Assembly (NCBI GenBank): GCA_963836035.1
Contig: CAWIHX010000005.1
Span: 118,603-182,602, forward strand
Origin: an uncultured Solirubrobacteraceae bacterium
Lineage (GTDB): Bacteria; Actinomycetota; Thermoleophilia; Solirubrobacterales; Solirubrobacteraceae
Length of the DNA stretch: 64,000 nucleotides
Direction of reading: 5' to 3'
A program made the position numbers and the translations under genes. This document shows positions 9,414 to 34,289 of this stretch, piece after piece. Within the stretch, counting starts at the first letter, position 1; every line of letters starts with the position of its first letter. The notes under the pieces were generated by a model that was not told where the DNA came from, made no database searches, and saw only the letters and a program-made list of their open reading frames with translations.

Positions 9414-11522
9414 ATGGATCTGGGCCGCGCTCGCAAGATCCTCAACGTCGCCGACAGCGCGTTCATCTCGATGGACGATCAGGGGTGCGTCACCTACTGG
9501 AACATCCGCGCCGAAGAGACGTTCGGCTGGACGCGTGAGCAGGCGGTCGGCCGCAATGTGATCGAGCTCATCGTGCCCGAGCGCTACCGCGAGGCGCTGC
9601 GCGATGGGTTCCGCCGCTTCAAAGCCGGCGGCGAGACGCGGCTCGTGGAGCGGCGCACCGAGCAGATCGGGGTCCGCGCCGACGGCAGCGAGTTCCCGGT
9701 CGAAGTGATCGTCTCGGCGCTCGAGGAGGACGACGGCCATTCCTTTCACGCCTTCATCACCGACATCTCCGAGCGCGTGGCCCGCGAGGAGGAGCGCAAG
9801 CGGCTGCTCGCCGAGCTCGAGCGCGCGCTCGCCGGCTCCGAGCAGCGCCTGCAGGCGATCGTCGACTCGCTGGTCGAGGCGATCACGATCCGCGCTCCAG
9901 ACGACCGCCTGATCTACGCCAACCGCGCCGCTCTCGACCGCCTCGGGATGGCCTCGGTCGAGGAGCTGGCGTCAGCCGACCCGCGCGCGCTGATGCGCGA
10001 TCACGAAGTGTGGACCGAGGACGGGCGCGATGTGGCGATGGACGACCTGCCCTCGGTACGCCTGCTGCGCGGGGAGGAGCGCCCCGAGCCGATGCTGCTG
10101 CGGACGGTCGAGAAGGCACGCGGGGAGGAGCACTGGGTGCTGCTGAAGGCCGCGGCGGTGCGCTCGGAGGAGGGAGAGATCGAAGCCGCGGTGACGATCA
10201 TCGAGGACGTCACGACGAGCAAGCGGCTGCAGCTGCGCAGCGATTTCCTCGCGCGCGCGGCGACGCAGCTGGCGTCCTCGCTTGACTACCAGCAGACGCT
10301 GCAGAACGTGGCCGGCCTGGCGGTGCCGGTGCTGGCCGACTGGTGCGGGGTCGATCTGATCGACGAGGAAGGACGCCGCGAGCCGGTCGCCGTGGCCCAC
10401 GTCGATCCGGCTCGGGTCGAGCTGGCGAGGCGGTTGCGCGAGTACGAGCCGGAGCACATGCAGCCCGACCGCGGCATCGGCAGGGTGGTCGCGACGGGCG
10501 AGCCGGTGCTCTACAACGACATCCCGGTGGAGCTGCTGCGCCAGGCGGCCGCGGATGAGGAGCACCTGCGGCTGCTGCGCGAGGTGGGGATGCGCGCGGT
10601 GCTGCTCGTCCCGATGAAGATCCGGGGCCGTACGATCGGCACGATCTCGCTCGTCAGCGCCGAATCGGGCCGCACCTTCGATGCCGGCGATGTCGAGTTC
10701 GCCGAGCAGATCGCGGAGCGGGCGGCGCTGGCCGTCGAGAACGCGCGCCTCTACGGCGAACGCGCCGGCATCGCCCGCACCCTGCAGGCGAGCCTGCTGC
10801 CCGAAGCATTGCCGGAGCTGCCCGGCTGGGAGCTGGCGGCGATGTATCGCCCCGCCGCTCAGATGGGAGAGGTCGGCGGCGACTTCTACGACGTGTGGGA
10901 GGCCGGAGAGGACTGGCTGCTGATGATCGGCGACGTGACCGGCAAGGGGGTGCGCGCCGCCGCGGTCACCTCGCTGGTGCGCCATGCGGCCTGGACCGCC
11001 TCCGAATTCGACCCGCGGCCGGCCCACCTGCTGGAACGGGTCAACGCCGCGCTGCGCCGGCGTCCGTCGCTGTCGGTTTGCACGGCGCTCTGCCTGCGCA
11101 TCTCGGGCTCGAGGGTGACCGTGGCCTCGGGTGGCCATCCGCTGCCCTGGCTGCTCGGGGAGGACGGCGTCGTGGAGGTCGGCAACCACGGCACCCTGCT
11201 CGGTGCCTTCGCGCGCGCGCAGTGGCCGGAAGACAGCTACACGCTGGGCCCCGGCGAGTCGTTGGTGGCGATCACCGACGGCGTCACCGACACCGTCGGC
11301 GCGGACGACGAACGCTTCGGCCAGGAGCGGCTGCGCGCGCTCCTCCACGAGGTGAAGGGCGGCTCGCCGGCGGCGATCCGGGAACGGGTGGTCGCGGCGC
11401 TCGAGCGCTTCCAGGTGGGGGCGCAGGCCGACGACACGGCGCTCGTCGCGATGCGTCGCGCGGGCGAAAGAAACGGGACGGGCGGCACGGCGAACGCCGC
11501 CGAGCCGGCGGTGAGGGCGTAG
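9414..11522 (+). CDS. PAS-PAS-GAF-SpoIIE (PP2C) phosphatase, RsbU-like
   Basis: N-terminal PAS ('YWNIRAEETFGW'), GAF ('LADWCGVDL'), 'VGGDFYD', 'IGDVTGKG', 'TDGVTD', 'DDTAL'. Confidence 0.92.
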   Translation: MDLGRARKILNVADSAFISMDDQGCVTYWNIRAEETFGWTREQAVGRNVIELIVPERYREALRDGFRRFKAGGETRLVERRTEQIGVRADGSEFPVEVIVSALEEDDGHSFHAFITDISERVAREEERKRLLAELERALAGSEQRLQAIVDSLVEAITIRAPDDRLIYANRAALDRLGMASVEELASADPRALMRDHEVWTEDGRDVAMDDLPSVRLLRGEERPEPMLLRTVEKARGEEHWVLLKAAAVRSEEGEIEAAVTIIEDVTTSKRLQLRSDFLARAATQLASSLDYQQTLQNVAGLAVPVLADWCGVDLIDEEGRREPVAVAHVDPARVELARRLREYEPEHMQPDRGIGRVVATGEPVLYNDIPVELLRQAAADEEHLRLLREVGMRAVLLVPMKIRGRTIGTISLVSAESGRTFDAGDVEFAEQIAERAALAVENARLYGERAGIARTLQASLLPEALPELPGWELAAMYRPAAQMGEVGGDFYDVWEAGEDWLLMIGDVTGKGVRAAAVTSLVRHAAWTASEFDPRPAHLLERVNAALRRRPSLSVCTALCLRISGSRVTVASGGHPLPWLLGEDGVVEVGNHGTLLGAFARAQWPEDSYTLGPGESLVAITDGVTDTVGADDERFGQERLRALLHEVKGGSPAAIRERVVAALERFQVGAQADDTALVAMRRAGERNGTGGTANAAEPAVRA

Positions 11523-27139: not shown

Positions 27140-28693
27140 ATGGCCACTGTCGAGCAGCAGGTACCGGAGATTCAGAACGGCGTCGCGGCGCCCGTGACCG
27201 GCGAGATCCCGGTCGAGAACCCCGCCACGGGGCAGACGATCGCGACCGTCCCGGACATGACGGCCGAGCAGGTCGCCGAGATGGCTGCCCGCGGCCGCGC
27301 TGCTCAGCCCGAGTGGGAGGCCTACGGCTTCGAGGGCCGCGCGCGTGTGATGCTGCGCGCCCAGAAGTGGGTCATGGACAACGCGGAGAGGATCGTCACG
27401 ACGATCATGTCCGAGACCGGCAAGACCTTCGAGGACGCCGAGCTGGCCGAGATCGGCTACGCCGGCAACGCCTTCGGCTTCTGGGCGAAGTACGGGCCGA
27501 GGTACCTCGAGGACGAGCACATCAAGTCCAGCCAGGTGCTCGTGAAGGGCAAGAAGCTCATCAACCGCTTCCGCCCGCTCGGCCTGATCGGTGTGATCGG
27601 CCCCTGGAACTACCCGCTGACGAACTCCTTCGGAGACTGCATCCCGGCGCTGATGGCCGGCAACAGCGTGATCCTGAAGCCGTCGGAGGTCACGCCGCTG
27701 ACCTCGATGCTCCTGGCTGAGGGCATGCGCGAGTGCGGGCTGCCCGAGAACGTGCTGCAGATCGCGACCGGCCGCGGCGCGACCGGCGCCGCGCTGATCG
27801 AGCACGTCGACATGATCATGTTCACGGGCTCGACCAAGACCGGCCGCAAGGTCGCCGAGGCGGCCGCGCGCCGGCTGATCCCCTCCTCGCTGGAGCTCGG
27901 CGGCAAGGACCCGATGATCGTCCTGTCCGACGCCGACCTCGAGCGTGCCGCCAACTTCGCCACCTACTACTCGATGCAGAACGCCGGCCAGACGTGCATC
28001 TCGATCGAGCGTGTCTACGTCGAGGAGCCCGTCTACGACGAGTTCGTCTCGAAAGTCTCCGAGAAAGTGCGTGAGCTGCGCGTCGGCAAGCCGGAGGGCC
28101 CCGGTTCGGTCGAGGTGGGGGCGATCACGTTCCCGCCGCAGCTCGACACGATCAAGAGCCACGTCGACGACGCGGTCCAGAAGGGCGCGCGCATCCTCGC
28201 CGGGGGCAGCGAGGCCCCGGGCGCCGGGCGCTTCTTCGAACCGACGGTGCTCGTCGACGTCGACCACACGATGAAGTGCATGACCGAGGAGACCTTCGGC
28301 CCGACGCTGCCGATCATGAAGGTGAAGGACGCGGACGAGGCGGTGCGGCTCTCCAACGACTCGAACTACGGGCTCGGCGCCTCGGTGTTCTCTCGGAACA
28401 CCGAGCGGGGCGAGCAGATCGCCCGGCGTCTGCACGCGGGCGCGGCGAACGTGAACGACGCGATGATCAACTACACGGTGCTGGAGCTGCCGATGGGCGG
28501 CGCCAAGGAGTCGGGGCTCGGCACGCGCCACGGCGCCGGCGGGATCCGCAAGTACTGCTCCCAGCAGGCGATCGTGGTGACGCCGAAACTGGCCATGAAG
28601 AAGGAAATCTTCATGTACCCGTACAAGTCGCGGACGTCGAAGCTGCTGGCCGGGTTCTTCAAGTTCATGTACGGCCGCGGCAAGCGCGCCTGA
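27140..28693 (+). CDS. NAD(P)-dependent aldehyde dehydrogenase
   Basis: 'PWNYP', 'KPSE', 'FTGS', 'LELGGKDP', 'AGQTC', 'EETFGP'. Confidence 0.95.
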   Translation: MATVEQQVPEIQNGVAAPVTGEIPVENPATGQTIATVPDMTAEQVAEMAARGRAAQPEWEAYGFEGRARVMLRAQKWVMDNAERIVTTIMSETGKTFEDAELAEIGYAGNAFGFWAKYGPRYLEDEHIKSSQVLVKGKKLINRFRPLGLIGVIGPWNYPLTNSFGDCIPALMAGNSVILKPSEVTPLTSMLLAEGMRECGLPENVLQIATGRGATGAALIEHVDMIMFTGSTKTGRKVAEAAARRLIPSSLELGGKDPMIVLSDADLERAANFATYYSMQNAGQTCISIERVYVEEPVYDEFVSKVSEKVRELRVGKPEGPGSVEVGAITFPPQLDTIKSHVDDAVQKGARILAGGSEAPGAGRFFEPTVLVDVDHTMKCMTEETFGPTLPIMKVKDADEAVRLSNDSNYGLGASVFSRNTERGEQIARRLHAGAANVNDAMINYTVLELPMGGAKESGLGTRHGAGGIRKYCSQQAIVVTPKLAMKKEIFMYPYKSRTSKLLAGFFKFMYGRGKRA

Positions 28694-28819
28694 CGGGCAC
28701 GACTTCGGGGCGCACCGAGGTCGGGCCGCAGAGCGAGGGCGAGCCCGCCGTCGCGGCCAGGGGTGGCGCTTGGTCCGGCCAGGCGCCGCAACCTGCCTCC
28801 GAACTGTGACTCGCACAGC

Positions 28820-29218
28820 GTGAGTCACGGTGTCCTCGGTCTCGACCATGCCCAGGTCGCGGCGCCCGCCGGCTGCGAGGCCGCAGCACGGCTGTTCTTC
28901 TGCGAGCTCCTCGGGCTCGCGGAGCTGGAGAAGCCCGAGCCGCTTCGCGCCCGCGGCGGCGTGTGGCTCGCGCTGGGCGACGGGCGCCAGCTGCACGTCG
29001 GCGTCGAGGACGGCTTCCTGCCCTCCTTGAAGGCTCACCCGGCGCTGCGTGTACGCGCGGAGGAGATCGACGCGCTCGCCGAGCGGCTGGCGACCGCCGG
29101 GTTCGACGTGCGCTGGGACGAGGCGCTGCCGGTGCGGCGCTTCTACGTCGGCGACCCGTGGGGGAACCGGATCGAGCTGCTCGCCGTCGGCGTCTCCGGT
29201 GGCCTCTGCGACACATAG
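28820..29218 (+). CDS. VOC/glyoxalase family protein
   Basis: 'LDHAQV', 'QLHVGV', 'KAHPA', 'DPWGNRIELL'. Confidence 0.88.
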   Translation: MSHGVLGLDHAQVAAPAGCEAAARLFFCELLGLAELEKPEPLRARGGVWLALGDGRQLHVGVEDGFLPSLKAHPALRVRAEEIDALAERLATAGFDVRWDEALPVRRFYVGDPWGNRIELLAVGVSGGLCDT

Positions 29219-29425
29219 CTGCACGGTGTCTGGACGTGTCGGGGCAGCCCAGGCTCGGAGTTCGGCAAACAACGCCGTCTTCAATGACCGTCCGCGACTT
29301 TGGCTGGGTTTGTGTTTCTTCCCTGCAAAATTCCACCTGGGTGCAGGGATGATGGCGTAGCTGGCTTTGGGATTAATGCGAAACAAACACAAAAACACCA
29401 GATTGTTCGCTAAACTGCGGCGGCA

Positions 29426-31072
29426 ATGGCGCGCAAACGAGAGCTACTCGGCATCCCTCCCCAACTCGATGAGGCGGGCTTCTGGGCGCTAGTTGGTGTC
29501 CACGAGACCGGGACCGTCGAGTTCAAGGAGGCCACACCTAAAGCCAAGCCGCTGCAGGAGCCGCTCGTCGCCTTCGCTAACTCGCACGGAGGCATGGTGG
29601 TGGTCGGGGTCGAAGAGGCGCGGCCGCACAGGCTCGTCGGCGTCGACTGGACGCAGGACGATGAGGAGAGGGTCCAGGAGGCGCTCCGCCAGACACAGCC
29701 GCCACTCACCGCGGACATAGCGACTGCCCGCGTAGACGGCAAGACCGTCGCCTTCATCCAGGTTCAACGGCCCGACCAAGGATGGGTCCACACGTCGAAC
29801 GGTCGCCTCGTCATCCGGGCAGGCCCAACAAACCGGGCTCTGGTCGGTGACGAACTCGCCCGCTTTGTGAGAGAGCGCGGCTCCGTGCCGGCTGAGGATC
29901 AGCCTGTGCGCGGGCTGAGTGTCGACGACTTGGACGGCGGCGCGATTCGGGAGTACCTCAAGGCGCGACTCGGTCGAGCCCGGGTCAGTCTGGGGCCGGC
30001 ACTAACCGATGTCGGCTTGGCGAACGCCGAGGGCGAACTGCGGCTGGCGACGGACCTGCTGTTCGGGAAGGAGCCGCAGAAGCGCAATCGTCGCTTCGGA
30101 GTCGTTTTCATGCGATTCGAAGGCTCCGTGGAGTGCGGTGCAAAGCTTCGTGAACGCACTGAGTTGGGGGGGCGACTCCCAACGCTTGTCGCTGACGCCG
30201 ACAAGATGATCTACCGGGAGATGCGTCGAGACGCGGTGGTACGCGGGCTGATTCGCGAGGCCGTGCCGGAGTTTCCACCAGTCGTCATCCGAGAGGCGCT
30301 GCTGAATGCTGTCGGCCACCGGGACTATTCACTGCGAGGCTCGGCAATTCAGGTCCGGCTCTTCGACGACGCCCTTGAGATCGAGAGTCCGGGGATGCTC
30401 CCCGCCTACGTGACTGTCGAGAATCTCCGGGATGCGCAGTACTCCCGCAACGAGCGCATCATGGACGTATTCGAGCGCCTACACCTTGTGGAGGAAGCTG
30501 GAACAGGAATCGACAGGATGATTCAGGAGATGGAGGATGCACTTCTTGATCCTCCTGAATTCGAGGAGCGCGAATCGTCCTTTCTCGTCCGCCTTCGTGG
30601 AACGAGCGTCTTCATGGCCGAGGACCGGCTTTGGATCGCGGACCTAGGGATCTCGTTGAGCTCGGACGCAAAGATCGCGCTCGTCTACGTGAGGCGAAAC
30701 GGATCGATTGGAAACGAAGAACTCCGAAACCTTCGCCGCTTGGACCGCGACGAAAGTCGAGCCGTCCTCCAAGATCTTGTCGCGCGTGACCTTCTCAGAG
30801 TGACCGGGAGAGGCCGAGGCGCGAGGTACATCCTGGGCGACGCAGCCGCCCAGGCGCGTGGGCGCGTAACGCTCGACCACAAGCTGTCGACCATCTTGAG
30901 TCACGCACGACGCACAGGCAGCATCGCCAACTCCGACGTGCGGGGCCTGCTGGGTGTCGACCGCGTTGAGGCTCGTGAGCTCCTACAAGAGCTAACCCGT
31001 GCGGGGTTCATGGAGCCTGTCGGTGAGCGTCGCGCGCGTCGATACCTGCCGCTTGACCCGGTCGAAGCCTAG
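29426..31072 (+). CDS. Schlafen/AlbA_2 - HATPase_c_4 - tandem winged-helix protein (COG2865-like)
   Basis: 'ETGTVEFKE', 'VAFANSHGGMVVVGV', 'REALLNAVGHRDYS', 'SPGML', 'RNERI', 'EEAGTGI', two wHTH-like C-terminal repeats; more A/T-ending codons than neighbours. Confidence 0.88.
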   Translation: MARKRELLGIPPQLDEAGFWALVGVHETGTVEFKEATPKAKPLQEPLVAFANSHGGMVVVGVEEARPHRLVGVDWTQDDEERVQEALRQTQPPLTADIATARVDGKTVAFIQVQRPDQGWVHTSNGRLVIRAGPTNRALVGDELARFVRERGSVPAEDQPVRGLSVDDLDGGAIREYLKARLGRARVSLGPALTDVGLANAEGELRLATDLLFGKEPQKRNRRFGVVFMRFEGSVECGAKLRERTELGGRLPTLVADADKMIYREMRRDAVVRGLIREAVPEFPPVVIREALLNAVGHRDYSLRGSAIQVRLFDDALEIESPGMLPAYVTVENLRDAQYSRNERIMDVFERLHLVEEAGTGIDRMIQEMEDALLDPPEFEERESSFLVRLRGTSVFMAEDRLWIADLGISLSSDAKIALVYVRRNGSIGNEELRNLRRLDRDESRAVLQDLVARDLLRVTGRGRGARYILGDAAAQARGRVTLDHKLSTILSHARRTGSIANSDVRGLLGVDRVEARELLQELTRAGFMEPVGERRARRYLPLDPVEA

Positions 31073-31079
31073 TCTCGAC

Positions 31080-31709
31080 CTAGGCCGCGGCGTCCTCGCG
31101 CAGCCGTACGCCGAGCAGCGCTTCGAGCTCCGGGATCGTCGTCTCCGCGCTCGTGTGGTGGATCGTCGCCATCCCCAGCTCCTCGGCGGGGGCGAGGTTG
31201 AAAGGCAGGTCGTCGACATAGACGGCGGCCTCGGGCTCGGCGCCCGCGCGCTCGGCGCCGAGCTCGTACATCCGCACGGCGGGCTTGCGGATGCCCTCTT
31301 CCGCGGAGATCACGACGCCGTCGAACAACTCGTCGAAGAGGTCGTGCGGATAGCGGTGGACTCCCCAGGAGTTCGAGATCAGCCCCGTGCGGATCCCGGC
31401 CTGGCGGGCCATGCGCACCGCGTGGACCATCTCCGTGTCCGGCTCGACGCCCGCGAACAGGCCGTCGATCAGCCCGTCGGGCTCGACCTCCAGCATCGGG
31501 GCGAAGCGCTGCTCGAACCCGGCCTCGTCGAGGTCGCCGGTCTCGAGCGCCACCAGCAGCTTGCGCGCCTCGGGGTCGGTGCGGAAGCGTCCGAGGAGCA
31601 GCTTCGGGTCGATCTCGGCTTTCAGGCAGTAGTCGTGGAAGGACGTAAACAGGTTCGTCGTCAGCACGCCGCCCCAGTCGATCAGCAGCGCCGAGCGCTC
31701 AGGCGCCAT
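31080..31709 (-). CDS. HAD family phosphatase
   Basis: 'LLIDWGGVL', 'ISN', 'GIRKP', 'VDDLPFN'. Confidence 0.9.
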   Translation of the reverse strand: MAPERSALLIDWGGVLTTNLFTSFHDYCLKAEIDPKLLLGRFRTDPEARKLLVALETGDLDEAGFEQRFAPMLEVEPDGLIDGLFAGVEPDTEMVHAVRMARQAGIRTGLISNSWGVHRYPHDLFDELFDGVVISAEEGIRKPAVRMYELGAERAGAEPEAAVYVDDLPFNLAPAEELGMATIHHTSAETTIPELEALLGVRLREDAAA

Positions 31710-32784
31710 GAGCCACCGCCTCGGCCTGTCGGGCCAGCTCCAGCACGCCCTCGCCGAACGTCTTCAGGTAGGGGTCGTCCGTCGTGCCGCTGACGGCGCG
31801 CTTGTAGTTGCCCTCCATGAACACGACGCTCTTCCACAGCGCGAGCGTCGTGTACCAGCGGATGTTGCTCATCGAGCGCCCCGAGCGCTCCTCGTAGCGC
31901 GCGATCAGCTCGCTGCGCGTCGGGAAGCCCTCCGCGCGGGTGACGCTGCCGAGGTCGCCGCGCAGCCCCTCGACGGGATCGTCGGCGTCGGTCCAGAACA
32001 TGCACAGGTAGCCGAGGTCGGCGAGCGGGTCGCCGATCGTCGCCATCTCCCAGTCGAGCACCGCTGCGAGACGGGCGGGCGCGCCCGGTGCGTAGATCGT
32101 GTTGCCGAGGCGGAAGTCGCCGTGCACGATCGTCGCCGGCCCCGACTCGGGCATGTTCTCCGAGAGCCAGGCGGCGACGCTCTCGACGGCCGGGATCTCG
32201 CGTGTCTTGTTGATGTCCCACAGGCCGAGGAAGCGGCGCAGCTGGCGTTCCAGGTAGCCGGTCGGCTTGCCGAACCCCTCGAGGCCGACGGCGGTCCAGT
32301 CGACGGCGTGGATCTCGACGAGGGCGTCGATCAGCTCGTGCGCGGTGCGCTCCCGCTGCTCGGGGGTGTCGAGCGCCTCCGGCATGATCGTGACGATCAC
32401 GTCGCCCTCGACGCGCTCCATCACGTAGAAGGGCGCGCCGATGATCTGCTCGTCGGAGCCCACCGCGAGCACGTCGGGGACGCGCGCGGGCGTTGCCGCC
32501 AGCGCTCGCAGCAGGCGCGCCTCTCGCAGCACGTCGTGCGCGCTCGGCGGCAGCGGCGGGCGCGGAGGGCGGCGGAGCACGAACTCGTCCCCGCCGCGCT
32601 CGATCAGGTAGGTGACGTTCGAGTGGCCCTCGCCGATCGGGCTCGCGCGCACCTCGCCGTGGCCGAGCTCGTGCTCGTCGAGGAAGGCCTCGAGTGGATC
32701 GAGCACGAGCAGAGGAGGACGGCTGTTAGCCTGCCCGTCCTCCGTCGTGCGGACGATGTCGTCTGGCGCGACCGGGGCGCTCAC
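31699..32784 (-). CDS. APH-like phosphotransferase (ACAD10/11 kinase-domain-like)
   Basis: 'GHSNVTY', 'VLRRPP', 'HDVLRE', 'VHGDFRLGN', 'LDWEMATIGDPLADL'; TAGGTT box 7 nt before GTG. Confidence 0.9.
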   Translation of the reverse strand: MSAPVAPDDIVRTTEDGQANSRPPLLVLDPLEAFLDEHELGHGEVRASPIGEGHSNVTYLIERGGDEFVLRRPPRPPLPPSAHDVLREARLLRALAATPARVPDVLAVGSDEQIIGAPFYVMERVEGDVIVTIMPEALDTPEQRERTAHELIDALVEIHAVDWTAVGLEGFGKPTGYLERQLRRFLGLWDINKTREIPAVESVAAWLSENMPESGPATIVHGDFRLGNTIYAPGAPARLAAVLDWEMATIGDPLADLGYLCMFWTDADDPVEGLRGDLGSVTRAEGFPTRSELIARYEERSGRSMSNIRWYTTLALWKSVVFMEGNYKRAVSGTTDDPYLKTFGEGVLELARQAEAVAHGA

Positions 32785-32840
32785 GGACGAGAACCTATAT
32801 CGACCGCAACCTTCCCTGCGCTGAGGTGTCTCAACGGACC

Positions 32841-34289
32841 ATGCCCAGACTCCGCTCCCTCTCACTCTCGCTCCTGCTCGTGCTGATCGGCACGGCCCTG
32901 GCCGTCCCCGCCGGGGCCTCCGCATCACAGGGCCAGACCACCTACTTCGAGGCGGGCGCGACGCTGCTCGACAGCCGCACCCAGGCGAAGGACTTCTCGC
33001 AGATGCAGGCGCTCGGCGTCAAAGCCCTGCGCGTGGAGCTGTCCTGGGCCTCGGTCGTGCCCTCGGCCGGCAGCTCGACCAAGCCTGCGTTCGACGCCAC
33101 CGACCCGGCCTCGTACAACTGGGCGCTCTACGCCCCCGTGATCCAGCGGGCGCAGATCCTGCACTGGCCGGTGCTGGTGACCGTCACCTCTCCCGTCCCG
33201 CGCTGGGCGACGTCGAACAAGAAAGCGCCGTACGTGACGCGCCCGGACCAGCGCGACTTCCAGGAATTCATGACCGCCGCGGGACGCGAGTTCGGCTCGC
33301 AGGTCGCGGTGTGGTCGATCTGGAACGAGCCCAACCACCCGGCCTTCCTGATGCCGCAATGGCGCTCCAACGGCAAGCCGGCCTCGCCGCGCATCTACCG
33401 CGGCCTCTACCAGTCCGGCTACGCGGGCCTCGTCGCGAGCGGGCTCAGCCACCCGAAGGTGCTGTTCGGGGAGACCGCGCCGACGGGCTTCGACACCGTC
33501 AACCCCCGCCGCGAACACTCCCGTGCGTTCCTGCACGACGTCGCGCCGCTCGCGTTCCTGCGCGAAGCGCTGTGCCTGAACGCCCACTACCGCCGCGCGG
33601 GCTCCTGCGGCAAGCTGCAGATGAGCGGCTACGCCCACCACGCCTACACCAAGGCCGTGAACCCGCACTGGGTCAGCTCCAAACGCGACGACGTGACGAT
33701 CGGCTCGCTCTCGCGCCTCTCGCGCGCACTCAACCTCGCGGCGCGGAAACACGCGATCCCGTCACACCTGCCGATCTACCTCACCGAGTTCGGGGTGCAG
33801 AGCTTCCCAAACCACGAACTCGGTGTCTCGGCCGGCAAGCAGGCCGAATACGACGCGATCGCCGAACACATCGCGTGGTCGAACCCGCGCGTCGCCGCCT
33901 TCTCGCAGTACCTGCTCAAGGATGACCCGCTGGGCGGCAAACCGGGTTCGAGCGTCGCCGGCGGCTCGGTCGGCTTCCAGACCGGGCTCGAGTACGTCAG
34001 CGGCAAGCCCAAGCCGCTCTTCGCCGCATGGCCGCTGCCGCTGACCGTGAACCGCAGCCACGGCGGCTACTCGCTCTGGGGCCTCGTGCGCCCGGCGACC
34101 GGCTCGACCAAGGTCACCGTGCTCGTGCAGCGCAAGGGCTCGCGCGCATGGCGGGTCCTGAAGACGGTCAGCACCAACAGCCGCGGCTACTGGGCGCTCA
34201 GCTCGCACACGGCGGGCAGGGCCTGGCGCGTCCGCTGGAAGAGCCCGCAGGGCAAGAGCTACGAGGCGCCGGCCGTCCACGCGTACTAG
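32841..34289 (+). CDS. Secreted clan GH-A glycoside hydrolase (GH5/GH39-like) with C-terminal beta domain
   Basis: Signal peptide ending 'AGASA'; acid/base 'WNEPN'; nucleophile 'LTEFG'. Confidence 0.75.
   Translation: MPRLRSLSLSLLLVLIGTALAVPAGASASQGQTTYFEAGATLLDSRTQAKDFSQMQALGVKALRVELSWASVVPSAGSSTKPAFDATDPASYNWALYAPVIQRAQILHWPVLVTVTSPVPRWATSNKKAPYVTRPDQRDFQEFMTAAGREFGSQVAVWSIWNEPNHPAFLMPQWRSNGKPASPRIYRGLYQSGYAGLVASGLSHPKVLFGETAPTGFDTVNPRREHSRAFLHDVAPLAFLREALCLNAHYRRAGSCGKLQMSGYAHHAYTKAVNPHWVSSKRDDVTIGSLSRLSRALNLAARKHAIPSHLPIYLTEFGVQSFPNHELGVSAGKQAEYDAIAEHIAWSNPRVAAFSQYLLKDDPLGGKPGSSVAGGSVGFQTGLEYVSGKPKPLFAAWPLPLTVNRSHGGYSLWGLVRPATGSTKVTVLVQRKGSRAWRVLKTVSTNSRGYWALSSHTAGRAWRVRWKSPQGKSYEAPAVHAY

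Follow-up and report, generated by a model that had tools for sequence, protein, structure and literature searches.

What does a Schlafen-type nuclease do when it is encoded by a single gene that has no defence genes around it? The question is raised by a gene within a stretch of 64,000 nucleotides from an uncultured Solirubrobacteraceae bacterium (GenBank assembly GCA_963836035.1, contig CAWIHX010000005.1, positions 118,603 to 182,602 of the forward strand), the whole of which we call the window. The 548 amino acid product joins a Schlafen/AlbA_2 nuclease domain, a GHKL (Bergerat-fold) ATPase domain and two winged helix-turn-helix (wHTH) units. An earlier note on this DNA had read it as a horizontally acquired defence sensor-nuclease, usually mis-annotated as a transcriptional regulator. 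The explanation which we favour, with about even confidence, is a self-contained, horizontally acquired single-gene cassette for an ATP-armed tRNase defence. Its product would be a stand-alone 'Schlatpase', the name given to the unit of a Schlafen domain and PF13749 (Kuzmenko et al., bioRxiv 10.64898/2026.05.29.728809), extended by a duplicated winged-helix tail.

The domain composition was clear from Pfam. SLFN_AlbA_2 (PF04326) was assigned to residues 27-138 (E = 2e-17, 64.3 bits against a cut-off of 25.3), followed in the same chain by HATPase_c_4 (PF13749) at residues 305-390 (E = 2.6e-27, 95.1 bits, cut-off 26) and by DIP2311-like_C (PF22168) at residues 496-540 (E = 4e-9, 37 bits, cut-off 27). 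No NCBIfam model matched the 548-residue protein. The last 135 residues contained two wHTH units; aligned to one another over 55 residues they were 38% identical (E = 1e-10), in agreement with the tandem repeats described in the earlier note.

The predicted fold told the same story. A full-length AlphaFold2 model with 24 homologues as input reached a predicted local distance difference test score (pLDDT) of 82.8 and a predicted template modelling score (pTM) of 0.70. Over its whole length it matched DIP2311 (3LMM) in Foldseek (E = 1.9e-30), and 3LMM was also the sole solved structure matched by sequence (phmmer E = 2.9e-21, residues 40-541). The middle of the model resembled GHKL kinases, for example PDK2, and its C-terminal part the tandem winged-helix proteins AlkX/YcaQ, SelB WH2-4, ScpB and MarR. 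For a separate model of residues 1-160 (pLDDT 82.4), the top 33 Foldseek matches were all either of the DIP2311 type (3LMM, 2KYY) or to SLFN13/11/14/12/5 or SAMD9, with SLFN13 (5YD0) at E = 2.4e-6.

Conservation was judged from 24 aligned homologues, which are 57-76% identical to the protein. In the nuclease motif E27-TGTV-E32-F33-K34, residues E27, F33 and K34 were invariant and position 32 was either E or D. In the Schlafen box V48-A-F50-A-N52-SH-G55-G56-MVVVG61, the same held for F50, N52, G55, G56 and G61. The Bergerat ATP site was invariant in E290-x3-N294, D314-D315, S321-P322-G323 and E356-E357-A358-G359-x-G361. Translation, Pfam and this alignment together bear out the ORF (open reading frame), the EFK motif, the AFAN-xx-GG box and the HATPase_c_4 core named in the earlier note. 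SLFN11 and CbCash depend on the E-x4-(D/E)-x-K triad, as do RorSlfn5 (PMC13056530) and RzAgo (bioRxiv 10.64898/2026.05.29.728809), and the N-box residues E290/N294 correspond to E314/N318 of RzAgo. E81 was the only invariant acidic residue downstream of the nuclease motif and is a candidate for the third acidic metal ligand. To judge from these residues, the nuclease appears competent, and so does the ATPase.

The gene was not inherited vertically at its present site. In the window it lies in a 2,386 bp insert between two convergent core genes, for an aldehyde dehydrogenase (ALDH) and a HAD protein. The ALDH and the HAD/APH (31080-32928) flanks were found in all 30 same-genus genomes searched, and coordinate comparison of the matches to both flanks gave an ALDH-HAD gap of merely 9-60 bp in about 20 of them (37, 48, 58, 43 and 32 bp in G012, G006, G004, G003 and G019; 21, 9, 13 and 18 bp in G046, G042, G020 and G043). 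Aligned to the empty site of G012, the insert occupies the space between both flanking stop codons. The earlier note had named vertical conservation in this synteny as the observation to set against its proposal; none of the 30 genomes carried an orthologue at the ALDH|HAD site, and the best same-genus match to the protein among 41 related genomes reached 37% identity and lay at another locus. Codon use was atypical, as had been stated: the GC content at third codon positions (GC3) was 0.729, against about 0.94 (range 0.869-0.965) in 11 neighbouring genes, and the GC profile fell to 0.616 within the gene. These 11 local genes served as the baseline, a crude genome-wide ORF set having been discarded for its wrong-frame shadow ORFs, which are typical at 70% GC. 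Three lines of evidence strongly support horizontal acquisition: the site is empty in same-genus genomes, GC3 is low and the homologues are not syntenic. Around the insert we found no convincing terminal repeats or target-site duplication, and around the gene in the window no tandem or phased repeat arrays.

The cassette carries its own upstream DNA. Similarity between homologue loci ends at the stop codon, and what they share is the ORF together with some 85-180 bp of 5' DNA; in the window, the conserved 5' region and the ORF measure about 1.73 kb. In 13 independent loci the upstream consensus read (AAATGCG)AACAAA, 12/13 variable nt, (T/A)TTGTT, 3-4 nt, CTAAnnT, 7-10 nt, start codon. The palindrome arms were kept in 12 of the 13 loci around a variable spacer; locus L048 bears the symmetric variant AACAAT...ATTGTT. 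At the equivalent position in 12 of 13 loci there was a CTAAnnT or TATAGT box. Within the 3.48 Mb genome the pattern AACAA-N13..16-TTGTT matched a single time, at the window palindrome, where 0.3 matches were expected by composition. Since a generic sigma-70 scan of the upstream region detected no promoter of the TTGACA/TATAAT type, the call of the -10-like box is based on conservation. The TAnnnT box may serve as the -10 element of an mRNA that is leaderless or nearly so, and the palindrome is probably an operator private to this gene, for which the wHTH tail of the encoded protein would be the simplest ligand. The coordinates of all features are given in the table.

Table. Features of the Schlafen locus and its flanks in window coordinates
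Feature	Position	Strand	Basis or remark
Schlafen-GHKL-2xwHTH gene	29426..31072	+	548 aa; ORF list, Pfam, homologue alignment, structure models
Schlafen/AlbA_2 nuclease domain	29504..29839	+	residues 27-138; Pfam, invariant residues, Foldseek matches
Catalytic motif E27-x4-E32-x-K34	29504-29527	+	within the Schlafen/AlbA_2 domain
GHKL (Bergerat-fold) ATPase domain	30272..30610	+	about residues 283-395; PF13749 match, invariant residues, PDK2 fold match
Winged helix 1	30662..30835	+	about residues 413-470; helix-helix-helix-strand-strand in the AlphaFold2 model, repeat of winged helix 2
Winged helix 2 (DIP2311-like_C)	30872..31051	+	about residues 483-542; PF22168 match, tandem winged-helix fold matches
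5' region travelling with the gene (promoter/operator region)	29340..29425	+	aligns with upstream DNA of homologues in unrelated neighbourhoods
Inverted repeat AACAAA-N14-ATTGTT, putative private operator	29382..29407	+	arms 29382-29387 and 29402-29407
TAAACT, -10-like (TAnnnT) box	29411..29416	+	9 nt before the ATG
Insert between the convergent core genes ALDH and HAD	28694..31079	.	flank spacing in relatives; empty-site alignment
ALDH (aldehyde dehydrogenase) core gene	27140-28693	+	present in 30/30 same-genus genomes
Glyoxalase/VOC-like ORF	28763..29218	+	151 aa; weak Pfam Glyoxalase match, E = 0.0025, under cut-off
HAD gene	31080-31709	-	convergent with the Schlafen gene; present in 30/30 same-genus genomes
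APH phosphotransferase ORF	31699-32928	-	pairs with HAD

The homologues are scattered. In a collection of 5.8 billion proteins the closest relatives were 74-76% identical and many more fell at 57-66%. Among about 185,000 species representatives, only five had relatives above 50% identity, dispersed over Solirubrobacteraceae/Solirubrobacterales, Gaiellales, Acidimicrobiales and Pseudonocardia; the next tier was a Chloroflexota group at 33-39% identity which lacks the second wHTH. The neighbourhoods of eight homologues were all unlike the window and mostly unlike one another. Three homologues, within the 57-76% range, adjoin transposase or integrase genes: P0002 a DDE transposase and the rplJL operon, P0003 a phage-type integrase that borders an element carrying HipA and AbiJ/Abi_C, and P0077 insertion sequence (IS) genes and a Hachiman pair of HamA and a helicase. 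Of the others, P0005 lies within a polysaccharide cluster, P0026 and P0027 at the same site between recR and ask (with a HEPN/NTase pair 8 kb off in P0026), and P0069 and P0108 among housekeeping genes (with a PIN/PhD pair 4 kb off in the latter). Known defence genes (Hachiman, AbiJ) were thus present in two of the nine subfamily neighbourhoods, and toxin-antitoxin pairs in two more.

Several details of these loci were recorded in passing. In L041 (12496-16696) the Hachiman-like pair, HamA and a 1,139-aa DEAD/Helicase_C/HIRAN helicase, lies 2.3 kb from the 59% homologue and is separated from it by IS genes (rve, HTH_Tnp_1); the whole block sits between a comEC/holA-like region and rpsT. In L045 (1-9759) an integrative element ends at the phage-type integrase directly upstream of the 75% homologue, and its cargo comprises HipA, AbiJ_NTD3/Abi_C, two HTH_3 proteins, an AAA_25 protein and an HTH_17 excisionase-like gene. 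Directly 3' of P0002, a 75% homologue, two independent contigs carry an ORF of 45 codons (L028 3803-3940, L029 1950-2087) without counterpart in the window, where the stop lies 7 bp from HAD. The start of P0069 (L043, about 9977-10001) has probably been called 24 nt downstream of the true one: the N-terminal extension of the other members is restored by an in-frame ATG that follows the conserved CTAAGAT box after about 9 nt. Temperate actinophages and 186 plasmid records contained distant relatives (25-33% identity). Mycobacterium phage Squirty gene 31 (NC_026588.1 26345-27442) and gene 38 of Gordonia phages (about 30306-31391) encode Schlafen-GHKL homologues at about 31% identity, annotated as 'DNA helicase', 'RecG-like' or 'HTH protein', and these phage-borne genes may be prophage-encoded defence or exclusion genes.

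How could such a cassette work? By analogy with better studied relatives, we propose that the gene has a promoter of its own with the AT-rich palindrome in it, and that the protein, probably bound to this palindrome as a dimer through its wHTH tail, holds expression low. The trigger would most plausibly be foreign nucleic acid or protein, sensed via the wHTH tail. Oligomerisation, which the analogy suggests to be driven by ATP, would then join the single-lobe Schlafen domains to an active bilobed nuclease; cutting of tRNA via the E27/E32/K34 site would stop translation and so abort the replication of a phage or another mobile element. Family-level evidence makes the defence role a reasonable inference. 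Within 10 kb of defence genes lie 69.6% of the genes for prokaryotic Schlafen proteins (pSlfn), as opposed to 30.4% which do not (PMC13056530), and several pSlfn architectures are protective. The cA4-activated Cash proteins and an Enterococcus Schlafen further support Schlafen tRNases in immunity. To this may be added two or three of the nine subfamily neighbourhoods.

A number of observations weigh against this explanation. No stand-alone system model in PADLOC-DB v2 matched the protein over its length, and the partial matches were to multidomain models (pAgo, Aga-SIR2, E1-E2); the prokaryotic Argonaute model PDLC02394 covered with its positions 55-435 residues 41-391 of the protein, that is, it matched through the N-terminal part of an SLFN-pAgo model, and NCBIfam was without match as well. 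The PADLOC check put forward in the earlier note therefore returned no system. No specific PADLOC match was obtained among the 10 flanking proteins of the window, a conserved DEAD-box helicase giving generic helicase-core matches, and the surrounding 6 kb or so are free of defence genes. This agrees with the earlier description of a solo gene. Five of the nine subfamily neighbourhoods resemble plain housekeeping contexts. The palindrome could be bound by a host factor instead of the wHTH tail, and the third catalytic acidic residue is not assignable with certainty, E81 being the sole invariant candidate. A literature search found no study of, and no experimental evidence for, any stand-alone Schlafen-GHKL-HTH (helix-turn-helix) protein. 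In E. coli, where Enterobacterales HisKinase fusions were tested alongside other architectures, protection came solely from two constructs, a DUF262 fusion and an Ig-like fusion, and from none of the HisKinase type (PMC13056530); for that host this counts as one weak negative. Of the defence sensor-nuclease proposed in the earlier note, the nuclease half has gained, with an apparently competent Schlafen nuclease fused to a GHKL domain and two wHTH units, whereas defence itself found no backing from a PADLOC model or from the neighbours.

The strongest of the alternatives, fairly unlikely in our view, is that of a chiefly autoregulated DNA-binding protein, a regulator or a chromatin/nucleoid factor, in which the Schlafen and GHKL domains would confer ligand- or ATP-dependent control of DNA binding and not immunity. 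Two conserved wHTH units with winged-helix folds of the MarR, ScpB and AlkX type and a conserved palindrome over the promoter region speak for such a protein, and the lack of defence neighbours in the window, the 30.4% of pSlfn genes found away from defence genes and the HisKinase-type fusions that gave no protection (PMC13056530) fit this picture. An idle nuclease, however, would hardly account for the invariant nuclease triad and SAFAN box in 24 homologues. The palindrome is unique in the genome, so there is no regulon, no neighbouring target gene was conserved across nine different neighbourhoods, and the gene is accessory and recently acquired.

Regulation and defence may also be combined. 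The wHTH tail, parked on its own operator, would both repress the gene and keep the nuclease idle; release of the protein would come from invading DNA, or from a phage factor competing for the wHTH or remodelling it, and ATP-driven oligomerisation would then arm the tRNase. We consider this specific scheme unlikely, but if true it would provide a general activation logic for the most abundant, uncharacterised class of prokaryotic Schlafen proteins.

Distinctly unlikely is a selfish, addiction-like or self-mobilising cassette, in which a tightly self-repressed toxic nuclease persists or spreads for itself with defence as a secondary matter; in a variant of this, the protein might move the cassette by recognising its own palindrome. 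In its favour, the shared unit is sharply bounded and sits at unrelated intergenic sites, often 7-10 bp from the next gene and mostly without an integrase. Yet we found no terminal repeats, no target-site duplication and no second copy of the palindrome, Pfam detected no recombinase-like domain, and three homologues adjoin ordinary transposase or integrase genes able to have moved them. P0026 and P0027, moreover, share the recR|ask site, and the cassette can therefore be stably inherited. Many database records suggest a DNA helicase or repair factor akin to RecG ('ATP-dependent DNA helicase RecG' at JGI, 'DNA helicase' in phage records, and a mention of 'recG C-terminal' in the Pfam text for PF13749). 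This identity is next to impossible and is refuted by the domain content, because Pfam and NCBIfam showed no helicase domain of the superfamily 2 (SF2)/RecA-like type and no RecG wedge domain, and the ATPase has the GHKL/Bergerat fold, which leaves the name as a historical annotation artefact.

These considerations also bear on the supposed mis-annotation as a regulator. The database names of the homologues are mostly 'ATP-dependent DNA helicase RecG' (JGI) or 'ATP-binding protein'. This part of the earlier note should be toned down: the conserved promoter palindrome suggests that the wHTH tail does bind DNA, probably at the gene's own promoter and at least to control itself, and 'regulator' would therefore not be purely a mis-annotation, unlike 'RecG helicase'.

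The surroundings of the cassette deserve some remarks. Between the last base of the Schlafen stop (31072) and the end of the convergent HAD ORF (31080) lie the 7 bp given in the earlier note. The VOC-like ORF upstream was considered as a functional partner and rejected because it was absent from all homologue neighbourhoods and its GC3 of 0.895 is host-typical. A further small palindrome, CCCTGCA-N14-TGCAGGG, lies at 29321-29348 in the AT-richer spacer that precedes the conserved 5' region, and of this palindrome only the right half (TGCAG) aligns with the homologue loci; it may be the terminator of the VOC-like ORF or the left edge of the cassette. The HAD and APH ORFs overlap by 11 bp (31699-31709) and remain paired throughout the genus; both features point to a translationally coupled operon.

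The ALDH|HAD junction is also filled in G005, G009, G013, G017, G018, G024, G041 and G044. G018 and G005 carry a GGDEF + HD-GYP membrane protein at this site, G044 an IS1380-like transposase with an NYN-like fragment, G041 secreted proteins and a PIN-toxin-like ORF, and G013 a small membrane protein. As the cargo in the other genomes is unrelated, the spacer is a variable, recurrent insertion hot-spot of the genus between two convergent core genes.

The architecture itself is already catalogued; two papers of 2026 rank it first in frequency among prokaryotic Schlafen classes. Schlafen-GHKL(-HTH) proteins make up over half of the prokaryotic Schlafen-domain proteins, and neither a function nor a trigger has been established for any of the stand-alone members. 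What the present analysis adds is the clean empty-site evidence, the insertion hot-spot and the conserved private palindrome. As a natural case of recent acquisition the locus is clean, with an empty site in about 20 sister species, intact catalytic and ATP-site residues and a compact cassette, and is for these reasons a convenient unit for cloning and testing. The palindrome offers a concrete handle on what the HTH tail of the Schlafen-GHKL-HTH class does.

Among known systems, the nearest in composition is the HisKinase-HTH class of pSlfn proteins. 'HisKinase' and 'HisKinase-HTH', with 34.0% and 19.2%, were the commonest of 55 compositions in 5,930 proteins (Perez Taboada et al., Nat Microbiol 2026, PMC13056530). 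The window protein has the same E-x4-(E/D)-x-K nuclease, histidine-kinase-like ATPase and HTH. It differs from this class, which is without demonstrated function, in its duplicated wHTH, its Actinomycetota-restricted subfamily and the absence of defence neighbours. The validated defenders of that study use other sensors, an Ig-like domain in RorSlfn5 and DUF262 in EcoSlfn7.

The Schlatpase unit was found in 58.6% of 103,533 prokaryotic Schlafen proteins, most of them small and with or without a C-terminal HTH (bioRxiv 10.64898/2026.05.29.728809). In the SLFN-pAgo protein RzAgo, ATP binding by the PF13749 domain (E314/N318) leads to a tetramer in which paired one-lobe SLFN domains form the active tRNase (bioRxiv 10.64898/2026.05.29.728809). 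The window protein shares PF04326 and PF13749 with equivalent nuclease and ATP-site residues, and tetramerisation and tRNA cleavage would follow by analogy. It has two wHTH units in place of the Argonaute core and therefore no guide-dependent sensing.

DIP2311 of Corynebacterium diphtheriae (3LMM, from structural genomics; COG2865) is a homologue over the full length, including the last wHTH (DIP2311-like_C), at only about 21-23% identity; as it is itself uncharacterised, the match gives the fold and not the function. The eukaryotic Schlafens (SLFN11/13/14) and the tRNase domain of SAMD9, finally, share the fold matched by the model of the N-terminal domain. The eukaryotic Schlafens have two lobes per chain and an ATPase of the superfamily 1 (SF1) helicase type, whereas the window protein combines one lobe with a GHKL domain, so that oligomerisation would be needed to build a bilobed site.

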